Shown here piece by piece: positions 3,701 to 18,868 of a stretch of 29,081 nt of DNA. Numbering within the stretch: position 1 is the first letter of the stretch; the number at the start of each line of letters is the position of its first letter. A program made the translations under genes and the position numbers. The notes under the pieces are model-generated. The model ran no database searches, was not told the origin of the DNA, and saw nothing but the letters and a program-made list of their open reading frames with translations. The stretch lies in contig JAGPKW010000001.1 of the NCBI GenBank assembly GCA_018053685.1, positions 1 through 29,081 on the forward strand. The letters are read 5' to 3'. The stretch is from Patescibacteria group bacterium (GTDB lineage Bacteria > Patescibacteriota > Patescibacteriia > JAGPKW01).

Positions 3701-6700
3701 TATGATACTTTATTTATGTTAAGGGCACAAATTAAAGAGATAAAACAAAAAGCTCAAAAAGAAAATCCTGAATATGCTAAAATTATAGAACAGATGGAAG
3801 GTATGTATGATGCTGATTATAATGAAGAAGCATATGAAAGAGCATTAAGAAATGCAGAGATAAAATTTAAAAATCATCCAGATTTATTGGCTAAATGGAA
3901 AAAGACATATCAAATAGAAAAATATTCTCAAGAGTGGTATGATAGAAGGAATGCAATATATGATAGATTAGGAGAAATATTTGGTAAAGATGATGTTTTA
4001 GATGCTTTATATGCAAGGAGAAATGAAATTAAAGCAAGATATAAACAAAATTATGTTTATAATCCTATATTTTACACTACAGATGAAATTAATGAATTAG
4101 ATGAAATTGATAAAGAGATAGCTGATTATATAGAGAACAAGCCAAAATATTCATTCTCTATAGAAGAAAGACAAGAAATTAAAGATTTAAAGAATGAATT
4201 AGCATCTATTCAAGAAAGCATATTATCTCCATTTTATGTTGAAAGATTTAATGAAAGAACAGACATTATGATAGCAAGAAGAAATGCTATGAATGCAGCT
4301 GCAAGTATATTAGAAAATAAACAAAAAAGATTTAAAGATAAAAATAGCACTATCACAGAAGAAGAATTGATGATGGCAGAAATGAAATATATACAAGCAG
4401 AAAATGATTTTGCAAATGTATGGAGTGAATATAGAGATTATTATAACAAATATCATGAAGATAAGTTAGGAGAATTTGATTATTTAAGATTTAATAGAGA
4501 TAGAGCAATTCCAAAATCATTTAATTATATATATAGACCTATATCTCAAAAATATATTCAAATAGTTGGTAATCCTAATTATTTTACAAAATACAATATA
4601 AAAGATGAAGCAAGAAATCCTAATTATGTTGAAGGAGTAGAAAATATGCCTTTACCTAAAGGAGTAATAAGTATAGGAGATGGTGTATATGATTTAACTC
4701 CAGAAGGAATGATGAATCCATATGTTAATCAAAAATTTAAAGATATAGTTGCTGATAAAGATTACAAAGATTATTATGATAAACTTACTACTTATTATTT
4801 TGGCTTACAGAAAAAGATGATAGGTAAAAAGATGGGATATGAAGTTCCTGGATATGCAGAAGATAAAATGGAAAATTTTAGTAGGTATGGATTTTTTAAA
4901 GGTTTATCTAGAGAAATAGCTAAGAAAATTGATAAACACATGAAGTTTGAAGGTTCACAACAAGATTATGTAGAGAATGTGTTTGGAGATTTGGGAGTTA
5001 TTAGAAGCAGATTTACAAGGCAATTAACAGAGGATATTCAAACCACAGATGCTATCAATGCTATTTATAAATTTGCTGTGGAAGCTCATTATAATAGTTC
5101 TATGCAAGAAGTACAACCACAAACAGAAGGAGCTATAGAATATTTTAAACAAATGATAAGGGATTTGGAGACTACTCAATCAGCAAATCCTGCAATGCAG
5201 AAAGAAATTGAAAAAAGAATTAAAGAATGGAGATATGCTGTAGAAGTATTAGAGTTTGAAAAAAGAAAATATATACAAGGACAAATTGATGACAGTCAAC
5301 AAAGAAAATTAAAAAAAGTAGTTAACTTATTATTTCAACACGTAAGTTTGATGAGGCTTGGTTTTGATGTTACCAATCAGTTAAAGAATTTTACAGCAGC
5401 ATCAGTACAAATGTGGTTACAAGCAGGTGGTGGTAGTAATCATTATTCTCAAAAAAATATGATGACAGCCTATAGAAAGGTTTTTGGAATAAATGGTGTT
5501 ATATCTAATTATTTAAAAGATTGGGGTAAAATCCATGATTTACATGAATCTACAATGTTATATAGAATGATGAATCCTTTGCAAAAAGATATGATAAAAT
5601 ACTACAAACAAATAACAGGTGGTAGATTAAGAAGGATGGGAGATAGATTAACTGATTTTATGGAATTAGGATATATGGTCCAAGATAAGGGAGACACAAT
5701 GATAGGTATGTTGGTTATGCATGCTGTTATGGATTCATACAAATATAAAAAGATAGATCCAATAACAAAACAACCTGTATTGGAAGATGGTAAACCTGTA
5801 TTAATTCCAGCTTCTGAATGTTATATTCAAAAACCTGATGGTACTTTAGAGATAAGAAATGATGTTGAATATACTATAGAAGATCAGTTAAAATTAAGAA
5901 GAATTATTGTAGCAGAATTAAGGAGAGCACAAGGTAACTATGCAACATCAGATATGACTAGAATGGAAGCTAATACTATTGGTAAATTAATGTTTTTCTA
6001 TAGAAAATATTTAGTACCATTGATGTTAAATAGATTTGGCATATTAAGACCATCTTGGGAAACAGGAGAAGCTACATTAGGATATTGGAGAGCATTAGCT
6101 CAAGCATATGGGGCTTTTGGTGCTAAAGCTACATTAAAACAATTCTTATTAGGTAATTTTACTAATAAGTTTGAAGATGGTGTAAGCAAATTAACATATA
6201 TTGATAATGCTAAAAATGGTAAACAAGAAATATATGAACTAGGAGATATATATGCAAGGAAAATCAATCATGCTTCAAGAGATGCTTTAGCAATGATAAT
6301 ACTTCTATCATTATCTATGATGGCATTGGGGGCTTTAAGAAGAAGGGATGATGATGATGAACCTGTAGATATTGTTACAGGGAATCTAATAAGAATATTA
6401 TGGGGTACAACAGGAGAAGCTACTAGTGTCTTTCCTTTTGGGGCAGGTACAGATGAGTATATTAGAAACTTTAGTACAGCATTACCTATGGCAAGAGAAT
6501 TATCAAAAGCATATCAAACAGTAGATAGATTGTTTAAAACAGCATTTGTGATGATAGCAGGTCAAGGAGAAGAACCAGATCCAGATATTGATGCTAATTG
6601 GTATGTAGAGTGGTATAAAGATGTGTTTTATACATCTTCATCATCAGGTTATCCAGAAGGTACAATGAAACTGAAAAAAGATTTACATGATTTAACAGGA

Positions 6701-6766
6701 TATTCTAATATTAGAGGTTTATTGCAGCCAGAAGTAAGGTTAAAAAGTATGGCATCAAGATTTTAA
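752..6766 (+). CDS. Giant (2004 aa) putative virion cargo/ejection protein with N-terminal PD-(D/E)XK (RecB/Cas4-like) nuclease domain
   Basis: Uninterrupted 6-kb ORF. Nuclease motifs HYIMEQ...LLPEVTLG...VGRVDMLAIAPNGRISIIDFKTKK...QLEMYSNML lie at about nt 1200-1800. The middle is a long helical/coiled-coil region. The C-terminal QGNYATSD...IGKLMFFYRKYLVPLMLNRF segment resembles large phage internal virion proteins. It sits just before the lysis genes. Confidence 0.75.
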   Translation: MNSCRYFTEQEITIAMQALNVTKNVAKAILTSMHNEMNGEDFNVTKDNIKNYIQGKKISEKDEVFLNNKKEAKIASLKNEQKRIIDIKNNKNNNNNLTNSQVNVLSKIIDIQEKLLEHFEEGTYAISVSNLKGVSKFRPSGEEVDIYADFKNFGTFMHYIMEQLILFQIDNSLAQQMGITKPIEGNIDVRWLDQEIFNILYDKFQEDETRAFEIENFTKETMFKAVSDMLYTVSDLINKGYVLLPEVTLGAKAFRDGDNIVVGRVDMLAIAPNGRISIIDFKTKKVQHMLAANSNDPNHVDVRVELGLNNYEIDSTGDTYSGFVGKKRTTYDEWFVQLEMYSNMLRQAGLDVDITNNKIIALAYQTTDDMSFRGQVVLSFSGYDYYISTQDYIKGARKFSHATSKWLGSKEDAKIRQSNKLDPLMKMIDEAIPYKDVVQEERMSKEELYNISPTEDKMQKFLTVVYENSKKNLEVLEAQLNEHGISDEVKNLRKTQISYLRSIINVVENGSRDEQLPFYRGLLYAQTLEQVEEQIYSLTKKFNEINKIYNEAIQNYMNNPTKENKQKYLDQYKIMMEIHEENNAVSEILNMLYEIGVEAKNNPANNITEDSVMYKKLLGAYAQHNSLQNKWQDATITMLTEVLRTISEADFVNITKGIRDVFTVEKSKILKKIDKLENNRKSIFNKIQSGFFKTLKRFINQEKDIYEDANLTEIEKEITGLRKRLHEIDAILNGLNYDRESLQKIIDNMKDPNSILYLGARTLYNKNWTMSNGAFARFQATVTDQDLGIASVVIMLKNAEGMMNHNITNDKALHDLAKNTDSIKNKKNIGEKELNEKIAEWTTIKRYNKETKQIEDRRVFVLVKPTSNEFETTYQTYNYKFRILKEKEKELRYEYNKIIKEQPKNHDAIKEAENAYFEAKKETYRHNAEYIDWLVKYANLPYIDAYYQLQKGLPLEYQEQLDDIYLTISTIMSRDIAEQDDDDYDTLFMLRAQIKEIKQKAQKENPEYAKIIEQMEGMYDADYNEEAYERALRNAEIKFKNHPDLLAKWKKTYQIEKYSQEWYDRRNAIYDRLGEIFGKDDVLDALYARRNEIKARYKQNYVYNPIFYTTDEINELDEIDKEIADYIENKPKYSFSIEERQEIKDLKNELASIQESILSPFYVERFNERTDIMIARRNAMNAAASILENKQKRFKDKNSTITEEELMMAEMKYIQAENDFANVWSEYRDYYNKYHEDKLGEFDYLRFNRDRAIPKSFNYIYRPISQKYIQIVGNPNYFTKYNIKDEARNPNYVEGVENMPLPKGVISIGDGVYDLTPEGMMNPYVNQKFKDIVADKDYKDYYDKLTTYYFGLQKKMIGKKMGYEVPGYAEDKMENFSRYGFFKGLSREIAKKIDKHMKFEGSQQDYVENVFGDLGVIRSRFTRQLTEDIQTTDAINAIYKFAVEAHYNSSMQEVQPQTEGAIEYFKQMIRDLETTQSANPAMQKEIEKRIKEWRYAVEVLEFEKRKYIQGQIDDSQQRKLKKVVNLLFQHVSLMRLGFDVTNQLKNFTAASVQMWLQAGGGSNHYSQKNMMTAYRKVFGINGVISNYLKDWGKIHDLHESTMLYRMMNPLQKDMIKYYKQITGGRLRRMGDRLTDFMELGYMVQDKGDTMIGMLVMHAVMDSYKYKKIDPITKQPVLEDGKPVLIPASECYIQKPDGTLEIRNDVEYTIEDQLKLRRIIVAELRRAQGNYATSDMTRMEANTIGKLMFFYRKYLVPLMLNRFGILRPSWETGEATLGYWRALAQAYGAFGAKATLKQFLLGNFTNKFEDGVSKLTYIDNAKNGKQEIYELGDIYARKINHASRDALAMIILLSLSMMALGALRRRDDDDEPVDIVTGNLIRILWGTTGEATSVFPFGAGTDEYIRNFSTALPMARELSKAYQTVDRLFKTAFVMIAGQGEEPDPDIDANWYVEWYKDVFYTSSSSGYPEGTMKLKKDLHDLTGYSNIRGLLQPEVRLKSMASRF

Positions 6767-6786
6767 AAAAAAATAATTAATAAATG

Positions 6787-6817
6787 TTGTAAAGATCAAA
6801 AAAAATAAGTATCTTGT
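6787..6817 (+). promoter_or_regulatory. Candidate Bacteroidota-type promoter upstream of the lysis genes
   Basis: TTG (6787-6789), 20 nt, then TATCTTGT (6810-6817). This is a near match to the -33 TTG / -7 TAnnTTTG consensus, in the 104-nt gap before the holin-like gene. Confidence 0.4.
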
Positions 6818-6870
6818 AGTGATGAACCTTTAAAGAAATAAATATGTATAACTATTAAAAAATAAATATT

Positions 6871-7254
6871 ATGGATTTTTTCTTACAGTATGTTTTAGTT
6901 CCATTATCTACATTATTGATTGGTGCATTAGGAACTTATATTAATTATGTTTTTTTACCAAAACATCAAAAAGTTAAAGAAGAAGCAGATAATAAAGCAA
7001 CTGCTATTGAAAAATTATTGCAGACAATAGATGAGATGTTGATTAAATATTCTGATTCACAAACTAAACTTATTGAAACAACAGAAAAATTAACAACTAA
7101 AGAATTGGAAATAAAAAGATTAGAACATAAAGTTTCTGAATTGGAAATTAGATTAAAGAATTTAGAATATGAACTAGCAATATCTAAGGGAGAGTCAGTA
7201 GAAGAATATAGGGCTAGGCAGATAAAAAAAAATCAAAAATTAGAAAATCAATAA
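6871..7254 (+). CDS. Holin-like membrane protein (N-terminal TM helix plus coiled coil)
   Basis: Hydrophobic FFLQYVLVPLSTLLIGALGTYINYVFL, then a heptad-rich tail. It ends 3 nt before the endolysin. Confidence 0.55.
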   Translation: MDFFLQYVLVPLSTLLIGALGTYINYVFLPKHQKVKEEADNKATAIEKLLQTIDEMLIKYSDSQTKLIETTEKLTTKELEIKRLEHKVSELEIRLKNLEYELAISKGESVEEYRARQIKKNQKLENQ

Positions 7255-7257
7255 AAG

Positions 7258-7854
7258 ATGAAAACAATAATATTAGCAGCAGCACACTCTAAAGATACGC
7301 CAGGCAAACAAAGTCCTGATGGAACATTCAAAGAATGGGAGTGGTCTAGAGAAGTATTACAAATAGTTAAGATAGGATTAAGACAAAATGGAGTTAAAAC
7401 AGTTGTAATAGCTCCAGAAAGTGAACCTTCAACAGCATGGTTGAAAAAAAACAGAGTTGATGTAGCAAATAAAATTGATAATGCATTTTATTTTTCTTTA
7501 CATGTGAACGCAGCACCAGGACAAGGTTGGCAACAAGCAAGAGGTATTGAAATCTGGACAAGTAAAGGTCAAACAAAAAGTGATGAATATGCTACTAAAA
7601 TATTCATTGCTTTAAGAAATGAATTTGAAAAAGATTTTTCAGATTTCAAACTATTCTGGAGAACAGATATGTCTGATGGGGACATAGATAAAGAAGCTAA
7701 TTTTACAGAATTGCTTTCAAAACATCCATCTGTATTACTTGAGTTTCTGTTTATGAACAATAAAACTGATTTAAAATATTTAAATGATATAACTATTAAG
7801 ACAAGGTTAGCTAATGTTTTAATAGATGAACTTACAAAAATTGCATTTTCTTAG
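7258..7854 (+). CDS. Endolysin, N-acetylmuramoyl-L-alanine amidase (Amidase_3)
   Basis: Zn and catalytic motifs are present: IILAAAHS, FKEWEWSRE, FSLHVNA, ARGIEIW, VLLEFLFMNN. Confidence 0.9.
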   Translation: MKTIILAAAHSKDTPGKQSPDGTFKEWEWSREVLQIVKIGLRQNGVKTVVIAPESEPSTAWLKKNRVDVANKIDNAFYFSLHVNAAPGQGWQQARGIEIWTSKGQTKSDEYATKIFIALRNEFEKDFSDFKLFWRTDMSDGDIDKEANFTELLSKHPSVLLEFLFMNNKTDLKYLNDITIKTRLANVLIDELTKIAFS

Positions 7855-7865
7855 TTTCATGTCTC

Positions 7866-7904
7866 AAAAAAAGGGGTTGATTTATTCTTCCCCTTCTTTT
7901 TTTT
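7866..7904. terminator. Bidirectional intrinsic terminator between the convergent modules
   Basis: A7-GGGG...CCCCTT-C-T8: stem AAGGGG (7871-7876) / CCCCTT (7890-7895) with an A tract on the left and a T tract on the right, in the convergent gap. Confidence 0.75.
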
Positions 7905-7952
7905 AATAGTTAAATATTGGTTTGTGTACCTTAATTGTTTTGTTTAGTTTTT

Positions 7953-8402
7953 TTATTCTTCACATTCTCCTAATGCAAATTTATTCATGTATAATAAGAT
8001 TCTATTAAGATCTTCTTTAGGGATAAATATTATATTAGGATCTTTTACCCATTTAAATTTAGGTTCATTAATAAAAGGCAATTTAATGTTCTTTAATGAT
8101 AAAGCATATATTATTTGAACATCTTGATTACCTTCATAAATATCATCAACTATAAATAAAGGTTCAAATGTTTTGTTAAATAATATATTCTTTTTATGAT
8201 CTTTTTCTAAAAAAAATAAGTTAAGATTAGCATTATGATATAAATATTGTGATATACAACCATACAATCCCTCATTATAATCTAATTTTGCAGTAGGAAT
8301 AGTATATGTATTTTCTCCTACTTGTTCCATAAGCAAATATCTATCATCTTCTATTATAATAGATAGCATTATTCTTGAAACTAGACCTCTTTGTTTTTCC
8401 AT
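7953..8402 (-). CDS. Nudix-fold protein with degenerate Nudix box
   Basis: YLLMEQ...YTIPTAKLDYNEGLYGCISQYLYHNANL keeps the exact spacing of GX5EX7REUXEEXGU but retains only the first E. Confidence 0.55.
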   Translation of the reverse strand: MEKQRGLVSRIMLSIIIEDDRYLLMEQVGENTYTIPTAKLDYNEGLYGCISQYLYHNANLNLFFLEKDHKKNILFNKTFEPLFIVDDIYEGNQDVQIIYALSLKNIKLPFINEPKFKWVKDPNIIFIPKEDLNRILLYMNKFALGECEE

Positions 8403-8417
8403 AATTATAATATATTT

Positions 8418-9002
8418 TTATTCTGTTCCATAATATTGAAAGCCATTTTCTTGATTATCAATACTATCTTCATTATATAATATGTCTGCTAATGTTGAAG
8501 ATGTTACACTACCAGCTGTTTTTTTTATAAAATATTTAGAATTTCTTAAATATGTATAGTCATCATTAAAAGATGCAATATACTTTTTAGTTATTCTCAA
8601 CACATCACTCCATGAATATTCAGGATACTTATCAAAGAACCAAATGAAAGATTCTCTAAGTTCTTTTGGGTTAGCTCTATAATATACAGTAGAATTTCCC
8701 ATTCTTTCTTTAGGAAACATTTCATTATATTTCTGTATATTATCATCCCATTCTTTGTTGGTTATTGATTTATTAGAACTTGCCATTACCTTTTCAACAC
8801 CTTGTAATAATTTAATGCCTTTATCAGTAATTTCATAATTATCATTATTTTTAATTAAATAACCATATTGTTCTAATCTTTTTAATTCAACAATAACATT
8901 TATATAATTGGAATATCCAACTTTTTTATAATAAGTATATAGAGCTAATAATCCATTTGGTGTGATGTTGTTTTTTATTAAATATTTAATTACTTTTTCC
9001 AT
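8418..9002 (-). CDS. Conserved phage protein with winged-HTH-like N-terminus (possible replication initiator/organiser)
   Basis: LKRLEQYGYLIK...YEITDKGIKLL is a wHTH-like pattern. The C-terminal YNEMFP...FIWFFDKYPEYSW...SKYFIKK region resembles phage replication proteins (inference). Confidence 0.5.
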   Translation of the reverse strand: MEKVIKYLIKNNITPNGLLALYTYYKKVGYSNYINVIVELKRLEQYGYLIKNNDNYEITDKGIKLLQGVEKVMASSNKSITNKEWDDNIQKYNEMFPKERMGNSTVYYRANPKELRESFIWFFDKYPEYSWSDVLRITKKYIASFNDDYTYLRNSKYFIKKTAGSVTSSTLADILYNEDSIDNQENGFQYYGTE

Positions 9003-9066
9003 TTCATTATTTTTATTATATTATAGTGTGATGTGAATAGTTTTTTTGGTTTTCTATTTTCTTCTA

Positions 9067-9099
9067 CCCCCCCCTTAGATGTATTCTTTGGGGGTTTTT
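9067..9099. other. C8/G5 GC-rich hairpin in AT-rich intergenic DNA
   Basis: CCCCCCCC (9067-9074), 15 nt, GGGGG (9090-9094), then TTTTT. Confidence 0.45.
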
Positions 9100-9137
9100 G
9101 CTAACCGTAAAAATATTCATTTGTTCGTTTCTATTAT

Positions 9138-9365
9138 TCAACTACCTATATCTATCTCAAAATCAATTTCACGTTTATTGCAGTCATATTGCTGCTCGAT
9201 TTGAGCTTTTATCTTATCGTATAGGTTGCATTCATCATAGGTTAATGTAGTATTCCATTCTAAAAATTTAGTCAATTTCATTCTTTTTAATATTTCTACT
9301 AACACATCAGACTTATCTCGTGTTCGTCCATTGCTTAACCATAATTTAATCTTAAAAACTTTCAT
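9138..9365 (-). CDS. Hypothetical protein (75 aa)
   Basis: ATG preceded by AAAATT; co-oriented in the operon. Confidence 0.7.
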   Translation of the reverse strand: MKVFKIKLWLSNGRTRDKSDVLVEILKRMKLTKFLEWNTTLTYDECNLYDKIKAQIEQQYDCNKREIDFEIDIGS

Positions 9366-9413
9366 AATTTTAAATTTTAAATCTGTTATTTATTATCTTT
9401 AATTAACTGGTAA

Positions 9414-9662
9414 TTATTCAAATTCAATATTAGCATATTGTACAGGGTAATAATATATTAATTCCCCATCATTTCTTGGTTTTAAATTATAGTACAGACT
9501 ATCTCCATCCATTGTGACGTTATATACCTTTTTCCCGTTTATTTTTTTTACTTTGTCAATATTCTTTTTAATTTCGTTTTTTTTGTCCGAAATATCTCGA
9601 ACAATCTCACTTAATGTATCTTCTATCTGTGTTTCTAAGCCAATCGATTCTAATGTTTTCAT
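9414..9662 (-). CDS. Hypothetical protein (82 aa)
   Basis: ACAGAATTATG start context; co-oriented. Confidence 0.7.
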   Translation of the reverse strand: MKTLESIGLETQIEDTLSEIVRDISDKKNEIKKNIDKVKKINGKKVYNVTMDGDSLYYNLKPRNDGELIYYYPVQYANIEFE

Positions 9663-9725
9663 AATTCTGTTGTTTAATTGTTATCACTCATGATTATTAT
9701 TCATTTTAAAACATTCGTAAAATAC

Positions 9726-9738
9726 GTTATATGTAATT
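9726..9738 (+). mobile_element. attC-like half site (R'-like GTTATATGTAATT), possible cassette integration scar
   Basis: C^GTTA lies 13 nt from the stop of the 9739 gene, the same geometry as the two full elements. It matches 11/13 to the reverse complement of AACTACACATAAC (10019-10031). There is no hairpin to its left. Confidence 0.55.
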
Positions 9739-9972
9739 TTACCAATAGAACTCATCAATCTTAATATTAAACCCTTGTAAACCTTTTATTAATTCAACAA
9801 AATTATCATATTGATTATCACCAATAATTCCAGTTGTTGTTATTTTACCATCTACTATTTCTATATCACCAATTTTTTCACTATTTTGTCTAATTGACAT
9901 CAAATGTTGATCTCTTTGTAAATCAAGTTTGTCTGATTTATAATTTTCATTGAATTTTTTAATGTGTATCAT
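9739..9972 (-). CDS. Hypothetical protein (77 aa), cargo of putative cassette B
   Basis: AAAATTATG start; lies between the half-site and element 1. Confidence 0.75.
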   Translation of the reverse strand: MIHIKKFNENYKSDKLDLQRDQHLMSIRQNSEKIGDIEIVDGKITTTGIIGDNQYDNFVELIKGLQGFNIKIDEFYW

Positions 9973-10018
9973 AATTTTAATTATTTTCTAAGTATATATT
10001 AAATTTAATTTCCCAAAA

Positions 10019-10123
10019 AACTACACATAACAAGGTGTATAAGAAAGTTTGCTATAAAATTCAGTGATAATTTGAAAGTTCATCTAAGCAAACCTTCTCA
10101 TACACCCAACCGTTAGCAAACAT
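10019..10123 (+). mobile_element. attC-like palindromic element 1
   Basis: ACATAAC (10025-10031) ... GTTAGCA (10112-10118). Inner stem GGTGTATAAGAAAGTTTGCT (10034-10053) / AGCAAACCTTCTCATACACC (10087-10106) pairs 18/20, and both mismatches are G-T on the minus strand. The loop is 33 nt. Confidence 0.7.
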
Positions 10124-10534
10124 TTAAAAGACCTCCGTTGTAATAACATCTGAGTATCTATTAATTTTGCCATATCTTGCCCACCAAGTATCACCTTGTG
10201 GAAACGTAAGTTCTTCTGCATCTTTTGTAAATTGATGCTTATACCAAGTTCCTTTTTTAATTTTTCTATACCATTTGAATTTACCTAAGTAAACATCTAA
10301 CCAAGTTTGTTTCATAAAAATATAGGAATAATCCCAAACATTAACACTATTCTTGTCCATTGCATTTAACCCTTGCTGAAAAACATCTATTGAAATTGAA
10401 ACCCTGATATAGTCTTCATAGGTTGTAAGGCAAATAGTTGTTTCATTTTCAGAATTTGAAAAAAAGTAAGATACATTTGAAAGATTAATAATTATATCTT
10501 TCCCATCGGTGTTTTTTACCTTGATAAATTTCAT
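10124..10534 (-). CDS. Hypothetical protein (136 aa from ATG 10534), possibly a two-domain chimera with FlbD/SwrD-like N-terminus
   Basis: The tracked GTG start at 10555 lies inside element 2; ATTATG at 10534 is the better start. MKFIKVKNTDGKDIIINLSNV...TTICL...V resembles the FlbD pattern. An internal MKQTW begins a Trp/Lys-rich second half. Confidence 0.65.
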   Translation of the reverse strand: MKFIKVKNTDGKDIIINLSNVSYFFSNSENETTICLTTYEDYIRVSISIDVFQQGLNAMDKNSVNVWDYSYIFMKQTWLDVYLGKFKWYRKIKKGTWYKHQFTKDAEELTFPQGDTWWARYGKINRYSDVITTEVF

Positions 10535-10540
10535 AATAAT

Positions 10541-10684
10541 AACTGCACATAACACTGTATAAAATCAAGTGGAGTTATGTGCTTAATTTAACCCACTTCG
10601 GCTGTTTAGATATTTTTGTGCAAGTAGGAACGTGTTTGCCGTTCAATCCCTACCTGCTTTTATACTTTTACGTTATGCAGCAGC
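10541..10684 (+). mobile_element. attC-like palindromic element 2 (branched)
   Basis: AACTGCACATAAC (10541-10553; 12/13 identical to the element 1 end) ... GTTATGC (10672-10678). Outer stem GTATAAAA (10557-10564) / TTTTATAC (10658-10665). Two inner hairpins at 10567-10598 and 10620-10657. Confidence 0.65.
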
Positions 10685-11134
10685 TTAAAAAAGACCGCAT
10701 TTAGTGTGTCTGTCATATAAAACTATACTCCCTGCAACGGCGACATTCATACTTCGAGTTCCGGGCAAATAAATAATTTCTTGACATTTTTCAATTGCTT
10801 CTTTTGTTAATCCATTATCTTCTGCACCGAGCAAATAGCAAGCCTGTTTAGGGTGTTTAAATTCAGTTAACTTTGTTGCAGTTTCAACAAGTTCAATCCC
10901 TACTAATTTACAATCATGTGGGCGGTGTTCGTTAAAGTCGGCAAAATCTTTATAAATAAATGTCGGTATATGTTTCCAACTTTTCATTGTGTCACTTGCT
11001 TGTGGTTTAAATCTACTCCCAATTAGGAAAATAAAGTCCGCTTCTAAAATTTGGGCAGTTCTAAAAAGAGTGCCATAGTTATGTGATGTTTTCATATTTA
11101 AACATCCAATCCCAAAATATCCTTTGTCTTTCAT
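10685..11134 (-). CDS. SPOUT RNA methyltransferase, TrmH/SpoU family
   Basis: Motif 1 NMKTSHNYGTLFRTA, motif 2 YLLGAEDNGL, motif 3 IYLPGTRSMNVAVAGSIVLYD. Confidence 0.9.
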   Translation of the reverse strand: MKDKGYFGIGCLNMKTSHNYGTLFRTAQILEADFIFLIGSRFKPQASDTMKSWKHIPTFIYKDFADFNEHRPHDCKLVGIELVETATKLTEFKHPKQACYLLGAEDNGLTKEAIEKCQEIIYLPGTRSMNVAVAGSIVLYDRHTKCGLF

Positions 11135-11206
11135 AATTCTGTTTTTTAAATTTATTTAGTTATTCGTTTGCTCTTAACCTTGTTGTTTGATTGGTTGCAA
11201 CCCTGT

Positions 11207-11470
11207 TTAGCATAGCATTTCAATTACAATGTCTTCATTCTCTTTAAAAAACCGTTCAACCGTTTTAATCCTCTTTCCGTTTAGAAATTCCAAGCAATCC
11301 GGAGCTTCTACAATCGTTTTTTCTGTTGCAATAAAAACAAATGGGTAAAAAAACCATCGTGAACCCATATTATTAATTTCCTCTGAAATAGACTCCTTTG
11401 AGTCACTGTAAAAATCCCTTACATACTCACCGTCCGGAGCAAAGCAAATAGCACTGTAAATTGTTTTCAT
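11207..11470 (-). CDS. Hypothetical protein (87 aa)
   Basis: ACAATTATG start; co-oriented. Confidence 0.75.
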   Translation of the reverse strand: MKTIYSAICFAPDGEYVRDFYSDSKESISEEINNMGSRWFFYPFVFIATEKTIVEAPDCLEFLNGKRIKTVERFFKENEDIVIEMLC

Positions 11471-11510
11471 AATTGTTTGTTTTTTAATTGTTCTTTAATT
11501 ATTTCATATA

Positions 11511-11518
11511 CAAAAGTA
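11511..11518 (-). promoter_or_regulatory. Candidate Bacteroidota -7 box TACTTTTG
   Basis: TAnnTTTG match in the intergenic gap about 40 nt upstream of the 11470 ATG. There is no well-spaced -33 box. Confidence 0.4.
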
Positions 11519-11522
11519 GCTA

Positions 11523-11726
11523 TTATTTTCTTAAATACCTTTCAATTTTTTCAATATCTTCATTTTTGAAGAACACATAAGGATTAAATGCTTTATTAAC
11601 CCCACTCATTTTATATCCGTATTTTCCATGCGGACAGTCGTCTGTGAATGTAATAAGGTTGTGCCATTTTTCACCAACTTTTACTTGTATATTATTATTT
11701 TTATCTAATCTAAAACCGGTTATCAT
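11523..11726 (-). CDS. Hypothetical protein (67 aa)
   Basis: Start overlaps the upstream gene's stop (ATGA coupling). Confidence 0.7.
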   Translation of the reverse strand: MITGFRLDKNNNIQVKVGEKWHNLITFTDDCPHGKYGYKMSGVNKAFNPYVFFKNEDIEKIERYLRK

Positions 11727-11947
11727 AATTTATTTTTTTTTAAATCATTATCAATTATATCTGTTAAATAGCTGTCTGTACAACAGTTTGGACAACCCCA
11801 ATAAAATTTTCCACCACTATAAAAATGTATCATATTATTAATAGGTTCTTCTATTGTAGTAATATCTATTAAGACAGAATTTTCACCTGGATTTTCATCA
11901 AATAATATAGAATCACACCTATTACACTTGCATAAATAATGTTTCAT
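11723..11947 (-). CDS. Small Zn-ribbon-like protein
   Basis: CNRC ... CPNC cysteine pairs. Confidence 0.65.
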   Translation of the reverse strand: MKHYLCKCNRCDSILFDENPGENSVLIDITTIEEPINNMIHFYSGGKFYWGCPNCCTDSYLTDIIDNDLKKNKL

Positions 11948-11991
11948 TTTATTTTTATTTTTAAGTTGATTAATATTTTTGTTATATCTAT

Positions 11992-12222
11992 TTAAAGCTC
12001 TATGAAAGAAAATTTTGGAACTACTAATTTAAGTTTTTCAAAATCCTCATCACGTTCTTTTTTCTCTGCGTACCAATAAGTTGTATCCTCTACATCCAAA
12101 GCATGGGGGTAATCGAAAGTTGGATCGTAACTTTTTGCTACTGTAATAGGAACATCAAAAGATTCAATTTTTTGAATATCAAAACTCAAATCTCCGTTGT
12201 TAAATTTAATAAATGGTATCAT
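11992..12222 (-). CDS. Hypothetical protein (76 aa)
   Basis: ATAATTATG start; co-oriented. Confidence 0.7.
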   Translation of the reverse strand: MIPFIKFNNGDLSFDIQKIESFDVPITVAKSYDPTFDYPHALDVEDTTYWYAEKKERDEDFEKLKLVVPKFSFIEL

Positions 12223-12224
12223 AA

Positions 12225-12386
12225 TTATTTGTTTTTAAGTCTTGTTATAGGTACAAAATAGGCTGATGAACCCACTTGGCTTAATAGAGGGTCTTCATTT
12301 ATGAGAATACACTCATCATCAAACCATTCCTCATCCATAAGTTCCTGTGAATCAGGCCAAGTTATTATTACATACTCTTTTTCCAT
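12225..12386 (-). CDS. Small protein (53 aa) missing from the ORF track
   Basis: MEKEYVIITWPDSQELMDEEWFDDECILINEDPLLSQVGSSAYFVPITRLKNK*. It has an AGAATTATG start and exactly fills the gap between its neighbours. Confidence 0.75.
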   Translation of the reverse strand: MEKEYVIITWPDSQELMDEEWFDDECILINEDPLLSQVGSSAYFVPITRLKNK

Positions 12387-12390
12387 AATT

Positions 12391-12669
12391 CTAATATTTA
12401 GTTATTGGTCGCCAGTGCGTAATTGAGCTTGCATATTTATAATCCCATTTGCCATATCTAATGCAGCCCAAACCAATATATTTGTTGTTGCACATAATAA
12501 GCACCGTTTTTCCGTGTTCGGGCAGTTCATCTTTTACAGAAATCCATTCTTGGGCAAAATTTGCACCTGCTAAAAATCCATCTATAAAACTCTTTTCAGC
12601 ATCTAATGGCAGTTTTTCTTTAAAATGCTCGGTGGCATATTCTTGTGCGGATTCTAAAATTGTTTTCAT
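12391..12669 (-). CDS. DUF551-like phage protein
   Basis: GFLAGANFAQEWISVKDELPEHGKTVLI...ITHWRPI is the WISVxxxLP...VTHW.P signature. Confidence 0.75.
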   Translation of the reverse strand: MKTILESAQEYATEHFKEKLPLDAEKSFIDGFLAGANFAQEWISVKDELPEHGKTVLIMCNNKYIGLGCIRYGKWDYKYASSITHWRPITKY

Positions 12670-12680
12670 TGTTATTTTGC

Positions 12681-13652
12681 TTATTTAACTTCAGTTTCAA
12701 AAACAGTTTCCCCCGTTTCATTACAAATTATTGAAACAGTTCCGCCCTTATAATCTTTAAAATAAGAATGATTTGTTCCGTTGTATTCTTCAATATAACT
12801 TAAACAGTCATCGTAACTATCTATGAAACCTTTATAATTACTATCTTGTTCATTGTTAAAATGAACATCATAAGTTAAGTCGTACATCATTGCGTAATGA
12901 TATTTATCGTTTTCAAATTCATTTCTTATAGGTTTTTCTAAATACTCTTTCCCATTAAGTAACTTCCCATTTTTGTATTTACTTCTTTTAACACCATCTT
13001 CTCCATATACTCCCCATTGCTTAAAGAAAAATGGCACATGATATAATTCACATTGTTCTTTAATGTTTAACACCCATTCTTTATTCATTTTTCTAGCATT
13101 ATGACCACTTTCGCCACCAACTATTACCCAATCAATAAGATTTAGGTCTAATTTACCCAAATCCTCTAACAATGGCTCACATGAGATGAATTTAACAATA
13201 GCATTTAATTGTTTTAAATATTGTATTCTATCTCTTGCTTTTTTATTTTCAACAGTAACTCCTAACCATACATTTTTAGGGATAGTTCTACCATGTAAAT
13301 ATTTATACATATTAATAGCTCTTTTGGTTAAAATTTGATATGTGTGTTGTGGGGTTTGTCTTATGACATCAAATACTCTATCTATAAATGAATAAGGAAC
13401 TTCTTCATGGAAAAGATCACTCATGCTACAAACAAATATCATAGTGGGATTTGTTAATTTTAATGGTTCATTTAAATAATCTTCATGTAAAGTTATTTTA
13501 TCAAAACCATTTTTATATTTATCTAGGTCCATTGCTTGTAATCTTTTTGTCATTCTTTCAGCATAACAATTCTTACATCCATCAGATATTTTTGTACATC
13601 CTGTAATGGGATTCCATGTTGTTTCAGTCCATTCTATTTTTGATTTCTTCAT
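12681..13652 (-). CDS. DUF5131 (phage Gp37/Gp68, radical-SAM-like) protein with an 82-aa C-terminal extension
   Basis: IEWTETTWNPITGCTKISDGCKNCYA, IFVCSMSDLFH, QILTKR, WLGVTVEN, FISCEPLL, WVIVGGESG, FFFKQWG. Confidence 0.9.
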   Translation of the reverse strand: MKKSKIEWTETTWNPITGCTKISDGCKNCYAERMTKRLQAMDLDKYKNGFDKITLHEDYLNEPLKLTNPTMIFVCSMSDLFHEEVPYSFIDRVFDVIRQTPQHTYQILTKRAINMYKYLHGRTIPKNVWLGVTVENKKARDRIQYLKQLNAIVKFISCEPLLEDLGKLDLNLIDWVIVGGESGHNARKMNKEWVLNIKEQCELYHVPFFFKQWGVYGEDGVKRSKYKNGKLLNGKEYLEKPIRNEFENDKYHYAMMYDLTYDVHFNNEQDSNYKGFIDSYDDCLSYIEEYNGTNHSYFKDYKGGTVSIICNETGETVFETEVK

Positions 13653-17428: not shown

Positions 17429-18438
17429 ATAATTAGTTCTCCTTTGTTGATTAAAAATTTATAAGGTAATGAAAAATCTTGTGTTTTAAAGTGATATTCT
17501 GCAATATCAAATATTTCATTACTTCTTTTTATCCATTCTTCTAAAGTGTCTTTACTCACTAAAAATGTTGCTACTTGACCATAATTATCACTTACAAGAA
17601 ATCTGATTTCAATATCATAATCATCTTTGTAATATTTAGAATTTATTACTAATAAATAATAAATAACAACTTGTAGCCAGTAGTTGTAGTATTCTATTGT
17701 TTCAAGAAAATCATTAATACTTTTATTGGAGGTTTTAAAGTCATTGATTTTGATAATTTTGTTTTTATGATCTATAGTTAAATTATCTAATATTCCTTTT
17801 AGACCAAACATTTCTAATTCAGGAATATCAGCTTCTAAATATAGTTCATTAAATGTTTCAGTTAAACTATCAAAATTCAATATATTGCTACCAATATGTT
17901 TAGTTATAGTATCATTTTTAATAATATTGTCAACTATTTCTAAAGCATAGTTATATAGTTGTTGAGTGATAATTTCTTTTCCTGTACTTCTTTTCAAAAA
18001 ATTAAAATAATCAATATTTTCTTGAGGTTCTATGATTTTTGCCAATCTTGATTCATCTGTTTTTAAAGATTGATGCAAATTCATTTCTATCAATTTATTT
18101 AATATGTTATCTTTAAAATCTTCCATTGTTTTATTATCATCATTCTCTATAAGATAACATTGATATATATAGTCTATTACTGTTTTAGAATTTGTAGAAG
18201 GTAATTTATCAAATGCAATCTCATACATTTTATTAAAATTCTCTGGTTGCAATAACAAACAATGAATAAGTCTTCCTTCTTTCATTGATTGTGTTTCAAT
18301 ATCTTCTTTCTCTTCTAAAACATAATGTTTATAATATAATGTTGGACTAAACATTAATTTTGTCAAAGCATTATAAGACAAATATTTTTTTTCTGAAAAG
18401 AATTTTTCTTCCTTGTTTTCTATTTTAAATAATTCCAT
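17425..18438 (-). CDS. PD-(D/E)XK exonuclease (RecE/PDDEXK_1-like)
   Basis: YLSYNAL, GRLIHCLLL, KGILDNL...INDFKTS, YWLQVVIY. Confidence 0.8.
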   Translation of the reverse strand: MELFKIENKEEKFFSEKKYLSYNALTKLMFSPTLYYKHYVLEEKEDIETQSMKEGRLIHCLLLQPENFNKMYEIAFDKLPSTNSKTVIDYIYQCYLIENDDNKTMEDFKDNILNKLIEMNLHQSLKTDESRLAKIIEPQENIDYFNFLKRSTGKEIITQQLYNYALEIVDNIIKNDTITKHIGSNILNFDSLTETFNELYLEADIPELEMFGLKGILDNLTIDHKNKIIKINDFKTSNKSINDFLETIEYYNYWLQVVIYYLLVINSKYYKDDYDIEIRFLVSDNYGQVATFLVSKDTLEEWIKRSNEIFDIAEYHFKTQDFSLPYKFLINKGELII

Positions 18439-18868
18439 CTTCTATATCCTTTCTGTAAAATTTCCCTAAAATATTATTATTATAAGAATTGTTTTCTAGA
18501 ACATTATATATAATTTGATACTTTAACTCTAGATATGTCATTCCTTTTTTTGTTTTACAAAATTGCAATATCTCTCTTTCAAAAAAAGATTTATTAGATT
18601 TATTTATATCATCTTTTAACTCTTGACAACTGCCATAATATGTCTTCCAATCATTTTCTCTAGAAACATATTTAAATCTTTTCGTTGTTCCTATTTTTTT
18701 CTTTTCTCTGTTAGATATTTTTATTTTTTTGGTAACAAAAAACATTTTTTTGCCAATATAAAATTTACCATTTTGAGTATTTGTAATTTTGTAAACAAAT
18801 CCAATAACATCTTGTGGAATATCTTCTAAAGATGTAAAATCTTTACCTAAGTATTTCCAATGATTCAT
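18425..18868 (-). CDS. GIY-YIG endonuclease (Seg-like)
   Basis: GFVYKITNTQNGKFYIGKK...WKTYYGS...LELKYQ; overlaps both neighbours. Confidence 0.75.
   Translation of the reverse strand: MNHWKYLGKDFTSLEDIPQDVIGFVYKITNTQNGKFYIGKKMFFVTKKIKISNREKKKIGTTKRFKYVSRENDWKTYYGSCQELKDDINKSNKSFFEREILQFCKTKKGMTYLELKYQIIYNVLENNSYNNNILGKFYRKDIEDGII

Follow-up and report, generated by a model that had tools for sequence, protein, structure and literature searches.

A contig of 29,081 nucleotides (nt) from the Patescibacteria group bacterium assembly GCA_018053685.1 (JAGPKW010000001.1, contig C41 in our numbering, and called the window here, as the whole of it was analyzed) raises the question of how a single small gene comes to sit in a phage genome, and by what means it could leave. 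The gene in question encodes a protein of 77 amino acids (aa). An earlier note on the letters of the window had taken it for the cargo of an integron-type cassette with matching ends and no hairpin at its left junction. The answer proposed here is that 9727-10112, called cassette B, is very probably an integron-type gene cassette in a short array of attC-like sites with no integrase (a CALIN) on a virulent-looking phage contig. The observations behind this answer are the anatomy of the recombination sites, the covariation in their stems, a rule of matched cassette ends, the positions of the exchange junctions, and the occurrence of the same sites beside an integrase-like gene in bacterial relatives.

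Anatomy of cassette B and its site family

Cassette B is read here on the plus strand of the window, and its recombination site is called element 1 (10019-10124). On the left is a hybrid R' box, GTTATATGTAATT, at 9726-9738 on the plus strand, in which G9726 comes from a docking site and TTATATGTAATT (9727-9738) is the first 12 nt of the cassette. On the right is an R'' box, AACTACACATAAC, at 10019-10031 on the plus strand, which is part of the cassette's own site and is constant in nine contexts of the gene. The two boxes pair on the minus strand at 13 of 13 positions, with 11 Watson-Crick pairs and two G-T pairs, just as the earlier note had described. Put another way, the reverse complement of AACTACACATAAC is GTTATGTGTAGTT, which shares 11 identities with GTTATATGTAATT and differs from it by two A/G transitions. 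The partner that AACTACACATAAC has in situ, GTTAGCAAACATT at 10112-10124, makes only 6 Watson-Crick and two G-T pairs with it, and the observation that the left half-site fits the far end better than element 1's own partner does is thus confirmed.

The remainder of the element 1 hairpin (10032-10112, plus strand) consists of stems at 10034-10053 and 10087-10106, a spacer, and the terminal G10112, at which cassette B ends. The arms form a 20-bp imperfect hairpin and are 90% complementary. Folded as DNA, the minus strand reaches -16.5 kcal/mol (z -4.8) and the plus strand -12.5. On the other side, 9660-9745 has no significant fold on either strand (z 0 and 0.6), so the left junction is truly hairpin-less, as had been claimed. 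The flank at 9704-9725, which has no strand of its own and no significant fold, is a degenerate copy of a docking site, T1, and is 2 nt shorter than T1.

Between the two boxes lie the cargo, the 77-aa open reading frame (ORF) P0001 at 9739-9972 on the minus strand, antisense to the polarity of the site, and its leader at 9973-10018 on the same strand. The leader travels with the gene in other contexts, with about 90% conservation in L016, L080-L084 and L090-L093, and presumably holds the cassette's own promoter. The protein belongs to no Pfam or PHROG family, and the protein atlas returned viral hypothetical proteins only. Homologues with 83-97% identity were found on 5 viral and 44 metagenome contigs; where the record name gives a source, it is a fermentation or activated-sludge metagenome.

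A 13-mer that pairs as well as these boxes do is expected 0.15 times per window, counting both strands (200 Markov resamples). The actual match is 293 nt off, on the correct strand and abutting the stop codon, and its chance was estimated at about 1e-3. Taken alone the match is suggestive, and comparative data make it solid.

The comparison began with a covariance model, R1, whose training set was element 1 plus three elements from one viral contig with the 77-aa gene; element 1 scores 108.5 bits on it. The model was complemented by a custom scan for AAC...GTT hairpins, which is noisy at weak thresholds (125 matches, and 83 in shuffled sequence), and its matches were kept only at -20 kcal/mol or better and only in phage contigs with R1-confirmed elements. 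About 40 elements of 65-145 nt were found in phage contigs G001, G006, G007, G008, L021, L045 and L046. They share one layout, which is ..YAAC, a spacer of 4-6 nt, a stem, a variable center, the second stem arm, a spacer of 1-3 nt, and GTTR... The hairpins have an asymmetric internal loop of 4-6 nt facing 1-3 nt. Every alignment row with letters at the core columns, 20 in all, has AAC and GTT there. In 21 distinct members, 90.4% of the structure cells pair, against 67.8% in shuffles and at most 50% when the alignment is slid, and changes on both sides of the pair were seen at 17 of 23 pairs. Three G-U positions are conserved, on the strand equivalent to the window's minus strand. In 34 of 39 elements, a set selected partly by energy, this minus-type (predicted bottom) strand is more stable than its complement. 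No matching family was found in Rfam, and there are no further copies of the element elsewhere in the bin to which the window belongs.

An attC site is an imperfect inverted repeat of about 57-141 nt, with outer cores ..AAC and GTT.., inner paired boxes, and a variable center. This is the anatomy of element 1, of the second element of the window at 10541-10684, and of the roughly 40 relatives, and the compensatory changes in the stems preserve structure over sequence as attC sites do.

The matching of ends is a rule of this family. The earlier note had found its support in one cassette only, which is now superseded by 22. When the 13-mer after one hairpin was set against the 13-mer before the next, these 22 cognate pairs had a median of 11 of 13 Watson-Crick pairs, usually with one G-T in addition, against medians of 6 of 13 for in-situ pairs (n=39) and for non-cognate pairs (n=1494); this is what the cassette model had been said to predict. 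In the diverged SpoU cassettes of G006 and L046, both ends have changed and are still complementary. In the box that adjoins the stop codon, 21 of 22 cassettes have T at position 3, opposite G, C or T but never A, so that it is never Watson-Crick paired. Position 4 is often mismatched as well, and the two positions look like a conserved unpaired feature of an extended R box.

Exchange at G|TT and the docking site

If cassette B moves as a unit, its homology to other contigs should end where its boundaries are. In L014, L016 and L017, homology to the 77-aa gene ends at 9724-9726 (blastn). The half-site AATTACACATAAC, with at most one mismatch, was found at 20 loci with 18 different continuations, which begin directly after AAC. 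A break after AAC is the complement of G9726|TT, and the crossover is therefore placed there, as had been proposed. On the 5' side of the gene, contexts that retain the hairpin all have the box GTTATGTGTAGTT and the outer stem (GGTTGnGTGTA ... TACACnTT), and the half-site that precedes this upstream hairpin differs in each context. A constant box and outer stem behind a varying half-site put both boundaries on the AAC side, at 9726|9727 and 10112|10113. The gene recurs with both ends in other contexts, in L016 and L080-L093, where the earlier note had suggested that metagenome homologues with the same two ends be sought. Its junctions lie beside the invariant AAC/GTT and have no flanking homology. 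The cassette occurs in different contexts with these boundaries, and appears to cross over at G|TT.

Comparison of whole contigs gives the same picture, one gene at a time. At the DNA level the window has only the 77-aa gene in common with G001 (324 nt, 89%), only SpoU in common with G006 and L045 (about 475 nt, 91%), and only an 82-aa gene in common with G008; the single genes shared with G001, G006 and G008 have 89-93% DNA identity. Contigs of run X2 part from the window right after 10115, at the end of cassette B, and right after 10675, each time after GTTA. Joints in reads that seemed to skip cassettes (9664>11481, 9703>11180 and others) were dropped as evidence, since their sides are shorter than 30 nt and they probably reflect a repeated leader before each start codon.

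Three viral contigs, L126 (7313-7690), L128 (504-825) and L130 (819-1305), form a clean allelic series at a single docking site. They have both flanks in common, with left ends in ..CGGATAAC and a right flank of GTGGCATTTACGAATGTTT, and between them stand three different units, each made of hairpin, box, gene and half-site. The polarity of whole arrays is alike: in at least nine of them the hairpin at the start is complete and its outer box unpartnered, and what stands at the end is a matched half-site without a proper hairpin.

The sequence on which cassette B ends at the left is itself conserved. The T1 consensus is GTGGYATTTACGAATGTTT, and the window's copy, written in the orientation of the gene, is GTATTTTACGAATGTTTT; the version that follows another cassette in G008 is GTGGTATTTACGAATGTTT. 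A search for GTGGYATTTACGAATGTTT turned up 10 IMG/VR contigs, in each of which T1 stands directly after a half-site ending in YAAC, with nine different half-sites among them. Beyond about 20-25 nt past T1 the sequence differs between contigs. Where it was checked, the terminal cassette before T1 has a hairpin and a matched box upstream. In two studies, contigs (runs X4 and X5) agree with the window's left flank as far as 9721 and then read TGCCAC GTTACCGGG... or TGCCAC GTTAGCAGC...; there the flank has an intact T1, and other cassettes are attached to it at this very G|TT.

We read the left flank as a conserved, reusable and probably attI-like docking site, not as a random secondary site, on the ground that the conserved site follows various cassettes in ten phage contigs. 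It is the hairpin-less head of an array, with different cassettes joined at the same G|TT. The earlier note had proposed insertion into a non-attC target that left only a half-site. The absence of a hairpin stands, and the target is a T1 copy, not a random one. The empty site joined at G9726 that the note suggested looking for was not seen; relatives of the 82-aa gene left of the junction are uninformative (G008 carries that gene in another context), and what was seen are joins of other cassettes at G|TT. Of the "single integration event" that the note had named, the cassette as a unit holds, and the singleness of the event cannot be shown.

The neighboring units of the window are of the same kind, in a less intact state. 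Cassette C (10113-10672, plus strand) has as its cargo a 137-aa ORF at 10124-10537 on the minus strand and as its site element 2 (10541-10684), which scores 29.6 bits on R1. Its ends make 6 Watson-Crick pairs, in line with the remark that this neighbor lacks matched ends. Residues 1-64 of the 137-aa ORF match a separate gene in L025, and residues 73-136 match separate genes of about 62 aa in L019-L024; the C-terminal half forms a cassette by itself in L021, between matched ends. The 137-aa ORF looks like an in-frame fusion of two cassette genes, and we infer that a deletion joined two cassettes into cassette C, which would explain the unmatched ends of 10113-10672.

The unit that follows, at 10673-11145 on the plus strand, is the remnant of a SpoU-methylase cassette. 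Its ORF, at 10685-11134 on the minus strand, matches Pfam SpoU_methylase at 1.6e-24, and it keeps the half-site TTATGCAGCAGC. Its DNA is 91% identical to that of L044 and L045, within 10670-11145 only. Against G006 and L045 the similarity breaks off 10 nt before the start codon, and in those contigs a hairpin and a matching box precede the gene; the window's unit has lost its own hairpin and site. With two full sites 522 nt apart and one half-site in a 29-kb contig that has no integrase, the cluster is a CALIN, that is, a cluster of attC sites lacking an integrase.

Polarity, recombinases and competing explanations

The window is the longest of 154 contigs in a 930-kb bin. The bin encodes a 473-aa DnaA, and is therefore taken as bacterial; a search for tmRNA across it was empty, and its relatives are all genomes of 0.7-1.6 Mb from many families, which suggests a class of the candidate-phyla-radiation type. 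The window itself, at 25% G+C, reads as a virulent-looking phage contig. It encodes a 2004-aa ORF and an amidase on the plus strand, and on the minus strand a distantly crAss-like family B DNA polymerase, an exonuclease, DnaB, a Toprim primase, a SegE-type GIY-YIG endonuclease, DUF5131 and a series of small ORFs. The SegE-type homing endonuclease gene (18425-18868, minus strand; Pfam PF19835, 2.9e-30) lies between the exonuclease and primase genes. Another variable segment is 11957-12221, 265 nt that are skipped in contigs of runs X3 and X4 (with a side of 179 nt in X3), taking the 76-aa ORF at 11992-12222 with them; there is no attC-like site near this presence/absence variant. The stretch is present in sequencing runs of 12 studies, on wastewater, biogas and anaerobic digesters, and the region also in metatranscriptomes (runs X15-X20). 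When deposited phages were searched with 8400-12700, a single irrelevant match was returned, and no DNA similarity.

No tyrosine recombinase or integrase was found among the window's proteins with Pfam profiles. The genes left of 9726 are the 82-aa ORF, a 75-aa ORF and a gene for a 194-aa protein with weak, below-cut-off winged-helix matches, and none is a recombinase. By Pfam and PHROG, then, no intI stands directly beside the window's left flank, T1 has no integrase gene beside it here, and the window does not contain a complete integron of intI, adjoining attI, and array. The tyrosine recombinases of the bin are Xer-like only.

The bacterial relatives supply what the window lacks. R1 matches occur in 28 of 101 small-genome relatives of the bin, so that integron-like arrays may be common in its lineage. 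Among the genomes surveyed (G016-G115, 0.7-1.6 Mb), G086 has at least six sites on its contig C16. The bacterial arrays keep the matched-ends rule, and their ORFs lie on the other strand than those of phages. In phages, 34 of 39 elements have a same-strand ORF of at least 40 aa that ends at the crossover-side box; in bacteria this holds for 0 of 12, and 6 of 12 have an opposite-strand ORF that ends at the other box.

In the classical layout attI adjoins intI, and cassettes enter at G|TT. One relative, G108, has an array of at least four cassettes of the same site family with cargo in the canonical orientation (L146, which is G108:C31:16000-28000, at 6309-10600). At its end is a half-site with no hairpin, TATTTCGTACAAC|TGG, and 46 nt away a divergent gene for a 283-aa tyrosine recombinase (L146:9749-10600) starts. 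This protein scores 228 bits against a cut-off of 220 on NF040815, "site-specific tyrosine recombinase/integron integrase", and a below-cut-off 221 bits against 265 on TIGR02249, where it lacks model positions 178-236, the region of the IntI-specific domain. The G108 array looks like a complete integron, and its recombinase is probably a short Xer-like integrase of the host lineage. The recombinase stands on the hairpin-less side, and together with the classical attI/intI layout this makes the window's plus strand the top strand and its minus strand the bottom strand. It follows from this assignment that the phage genes are inverted within their cassettes. The earlier note's polarity, with plus as top, element 1 inside the cassette and the gene antisense, is borne out by the three alleles, by the relative's integron, and by the better folding of the predicted bottom strand in 34 of 39 partly energy-selected elements.

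The phages themselves have no consistent recombinase. G007 and G008 have one each, G011 has a weak candidate, and G001, G006 and the complete G012 have none. The two clear ones are small tyrosine recombinases, of 271 aa in G007 (L075:9769-10584, minus strand) and 322 aa in G008 (L078:14863-15831, minus strand); that of G007 lies just downstream of its SpoU gene and scores 105 bits on NF040815.

In the proposed reading the plus strand of the window is the top strand and the minus strand the folding bottom strand. The site of cassette B is made up of the R'' box at 10019-10031, the hairpin at 10034-10106 and G10112, and in the circular form TTATATGTAATT would complete a 13-bp R box. The crossovers are placed at G|TT, at 9726|9727, 10112|10113 and 10672|10673. 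Cassette B is the first in its array, docked to a T1 copy that would act as attI, and unlike classical cassettes it has its ORF inverted relative to the site and a leader of its own. A tyrosine recombinase acting in trans, probably from the host, would cleave the folded bottom strand, and the unit would leave as a 386-nt circle and re-insert at T1 or at another hairpin.

Several observations weigh against this reading. Integron integrases were looked for across the bin and not found; the best TIGR02249 match there, on another contig than the window, scores 93 bits against a cut-off of 265. Nor is there a consistently phage-encoded recombinase, as PF00589 was found in only some of the element-bearing phages and has no match in G012, a T1-bearing phage rated 100% complete. 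The exact pattern of an empty T1 locus had 0 matches. No circle junction is in evidence, in material that consists of contigs only, where a 386-nt circle cannot be sought. The window's own T1 copy is off consensus, 2 nt shorter and with substitutions. The elements used for the test of strand stability were picked partly by energy. As substrates of an integrase the elements are candidate sites, with the adjacent recombinase gene in G108 as support. Finally, copies of the 77-aa cassette (L016, L080-L093 and the window at 10032-10111) share the R box and the outer stem but have 4-5 unrelated hairpin interiors.

These interiors do not fit a cassette that is inherited as one piece. In L093 and L086 the interior is deleted or collapsed, and SpoU likewise has different interiors in G006 and L045. 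The hairpin center appears to be exchanged or remodeled independently of the cargo, with only the outer stem and the R box co-inherited with the gene. A further oddity is seen in L088 at about 1714-1790, where the half-site of the 77-aa gene is followed by a collapsed hairpin, after which the cassette's leader occurs once more; related cassettes in tandem, or a deletion via the short repeat GTGTA, may lie behind it.

The first competing explanation is that the hairpins are regulatory modules like the promoter and terminator stem-loops (PeSLs) of T4-type phages, acting as RNA terminators or processing sites, and that the genes were shuffled by homologous or illegitimate recombination during co-infection, with no dedicated recombinase. 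The window has no integrase, the region is a block of small accessory genes that have a leader apiece, the phage transcribes the strand that folds better, and the hairpin interiors swap independently, all of which would suit such modules; shuffling mediated by PeSLs is also documented (PMC2839356, PMC4122927). They would not be expected, however, to carry cassette-specific inverted ends of 13 nt, or to have all junctions at a single position beside an invariant AAC/GTT with no homology in the flanks. In the bacterial arrays the same sites lie on the non-transcribed strand, beside an integrase-like gene. The region has 0 terminator-like sites where 0.5 are expected, and 14 promoter-like sites where 11.9 are expected by the sigma-70 consensus, which may not fit this host. 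This explanation is unlikely.

The second keeps the integron and reverses its polarity. The gene strand (minus) would be the top strand, each gene would be followed by its own attC with the crossover after the hairpin, and 9726-9738 would be the R'' box of a terminal attC whose hairpin has decayed. ORFs and sites would then be co-oriented as in classical integrons, the 77-aa gene is indeed followed by a full hairpin in L016, and T1 resembles the 5' arm of some hairpins, such as that of the element at 39201 in G001. Conservation never extends to the hairpin after the gene, though, given the 18 continuations in 20 loci right after AAC, and in the three alleles the hairpin varies with the downstream gene and not with the upstream one. 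At least nine arrays open with a full hairpin of unmatched box and close without a hairpin, the recombinase of the relative's integron lies on the hairpin-less side, and reversed polarity would make the worse-folding strand the recombining one. We consider it very unlikely. This reading, in which element 1 belongs to the upstream 137-aa gene, was dropped on the wider sample of junctions, the allele series and the bacterial arrays.

A third possibility is that an HUH/Y1 enzyme transposes the units as single strands, as in IS200/IS605 or REP-RAYT, with the hairpin guiding cleavage at the flanking AAC on the folded strand. It would account for strand-specific folding and for an inferred cut a few fixed nt 5' of the hairpin, and the 13-nt pairing of the ends could bring both cut sites to one hairpin. 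Against it, five records of phages with the elements gave no match to PF01797, the HUH transposase family, each unit has a single hairpin and not two ends, a tyrosine recombinase is adjacent in G108, and the AAC/GTT core and the layout of R and L boxes match attC. This makes it highly improbable. That the 13-nt match arose by chance in AT-rich DNA is barely credible, for although 0.15 such matches are expected per window at 25% G+C, this one is fitting in its position, in its strand and in abutting the stop codon, the gene has these two ends in other contigs as well, and the rule holds in 22 cassettes.

Known systems and the meaning of the proposed phage cassettes

Among known systems, the integron-type reading places cassette B closest to the attC clusters of virulent phages that are recombined by IntI1, in Polaribacter phage P12002L, Pseudoalteromonas phage PH101 and Tetrasphaera phage TJE1 (Qi et al. 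2023, PMC9892861). Both have attC-type hairpins between small genes of lytic-type phages with no phage integrase, and both have methyltransferase cargo, which in the window is the SpoU methylase. Divergent site directions are reported in the Polaribacter phage (PMC9892861). The present cluster differs in that its ORFs are inverted to site polarity (34 of 39 elements), in that its arrays end at T1, and in that the exchange runs among many uncultivated phages with no DNA similarity to deposited ones; it is known from sequence alone.

With classical integrons, such as class 1 and the Vibrio superintegron, the cluster shares the AAC...GTT cores, the imperfect hairpin of variable length, the G|TT crossover with complementary cassette ends, a predicted bottom strand that folds better in most elements, and a simple hairpin-less site at the array head. 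Unlike them, it has an R box paired along 13 nt, whose position 3 is a conserved T, unpaired or in a wobble, cargo that is antisense and presumably self-expressed, a docking site with no intI beside it, and interiors that are exchanged independently of cargo.

The integrons of Archaea and other non-classical lineages are a third comparison, in which most arrays are CALINs in metagenome-assembled genomes, and in which archaeal IntIs are reported to keep the IntI-specific domain (Ghaly et al. 2022, PMC9668308). There too the sites are more similar within than between lineages, and attI is semi-conserved beside intI; the 283-aa recombinase of G108, by contrast, has no TIGR02249 positions 178-236. 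PeSLs join a promoter to a terminator stem-loop and are thought to act via homologous recombination (Arbiol et al. 2010, PMC2839356; PMC4122927). PeSL cassettes of T4-type phages are alike in their stem-loops flanking small accessory genes, in plastic regions where single genes are gained, lost or replaced, but they differ from the cassettes here, which have fixed G|TT junctions, complementary ends and an integrase-linked counterpart in bacteria.

By anatomy and behavior, then, the attC/CALIN kind in phages is already known. What is new is that the cargo is systematically inverted, that the docking site is an orphan, that exchange reaches this extent among uncultivated phages, and that the host lineage probably has a short Xer-like integrase. 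A broader proposal is possible and is put forward tentatively. Phages whose hosts are small-genome bacteria, probably of the candidate-phyla-radiation type, may keep a platform of their own, made of the orphan T1 docking site and inverted, self-expressed cassettes, which would be serviced by a host XerA-like integrase that lacks the IntI-specific domain and would link unrelated phages and host integrons. The questions that arise are why the phage cargo is inverted, what role a docking site has when it comes with no integrase, and whether a short Xer-like recombinase that lacks the IntI-specific domain can run an integron.

Single-gene mosaicism in phages is usually attributed to illegitimate or homologous recombination. 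The same cassette recurs at about 18 other metagenome junctions, and on this ground the swapping of genes is attributed here to site-specific recombination sites. Published cases are few and come from cultured phages; the finding adds to them a large group of uncultivated ones from digesters and wastewater. Precise site-specific junctions, at sites that these phages share with bacterial integron-like arrays, would give a testable mechanism for the gain and loss of accessory genes by lytic phages.

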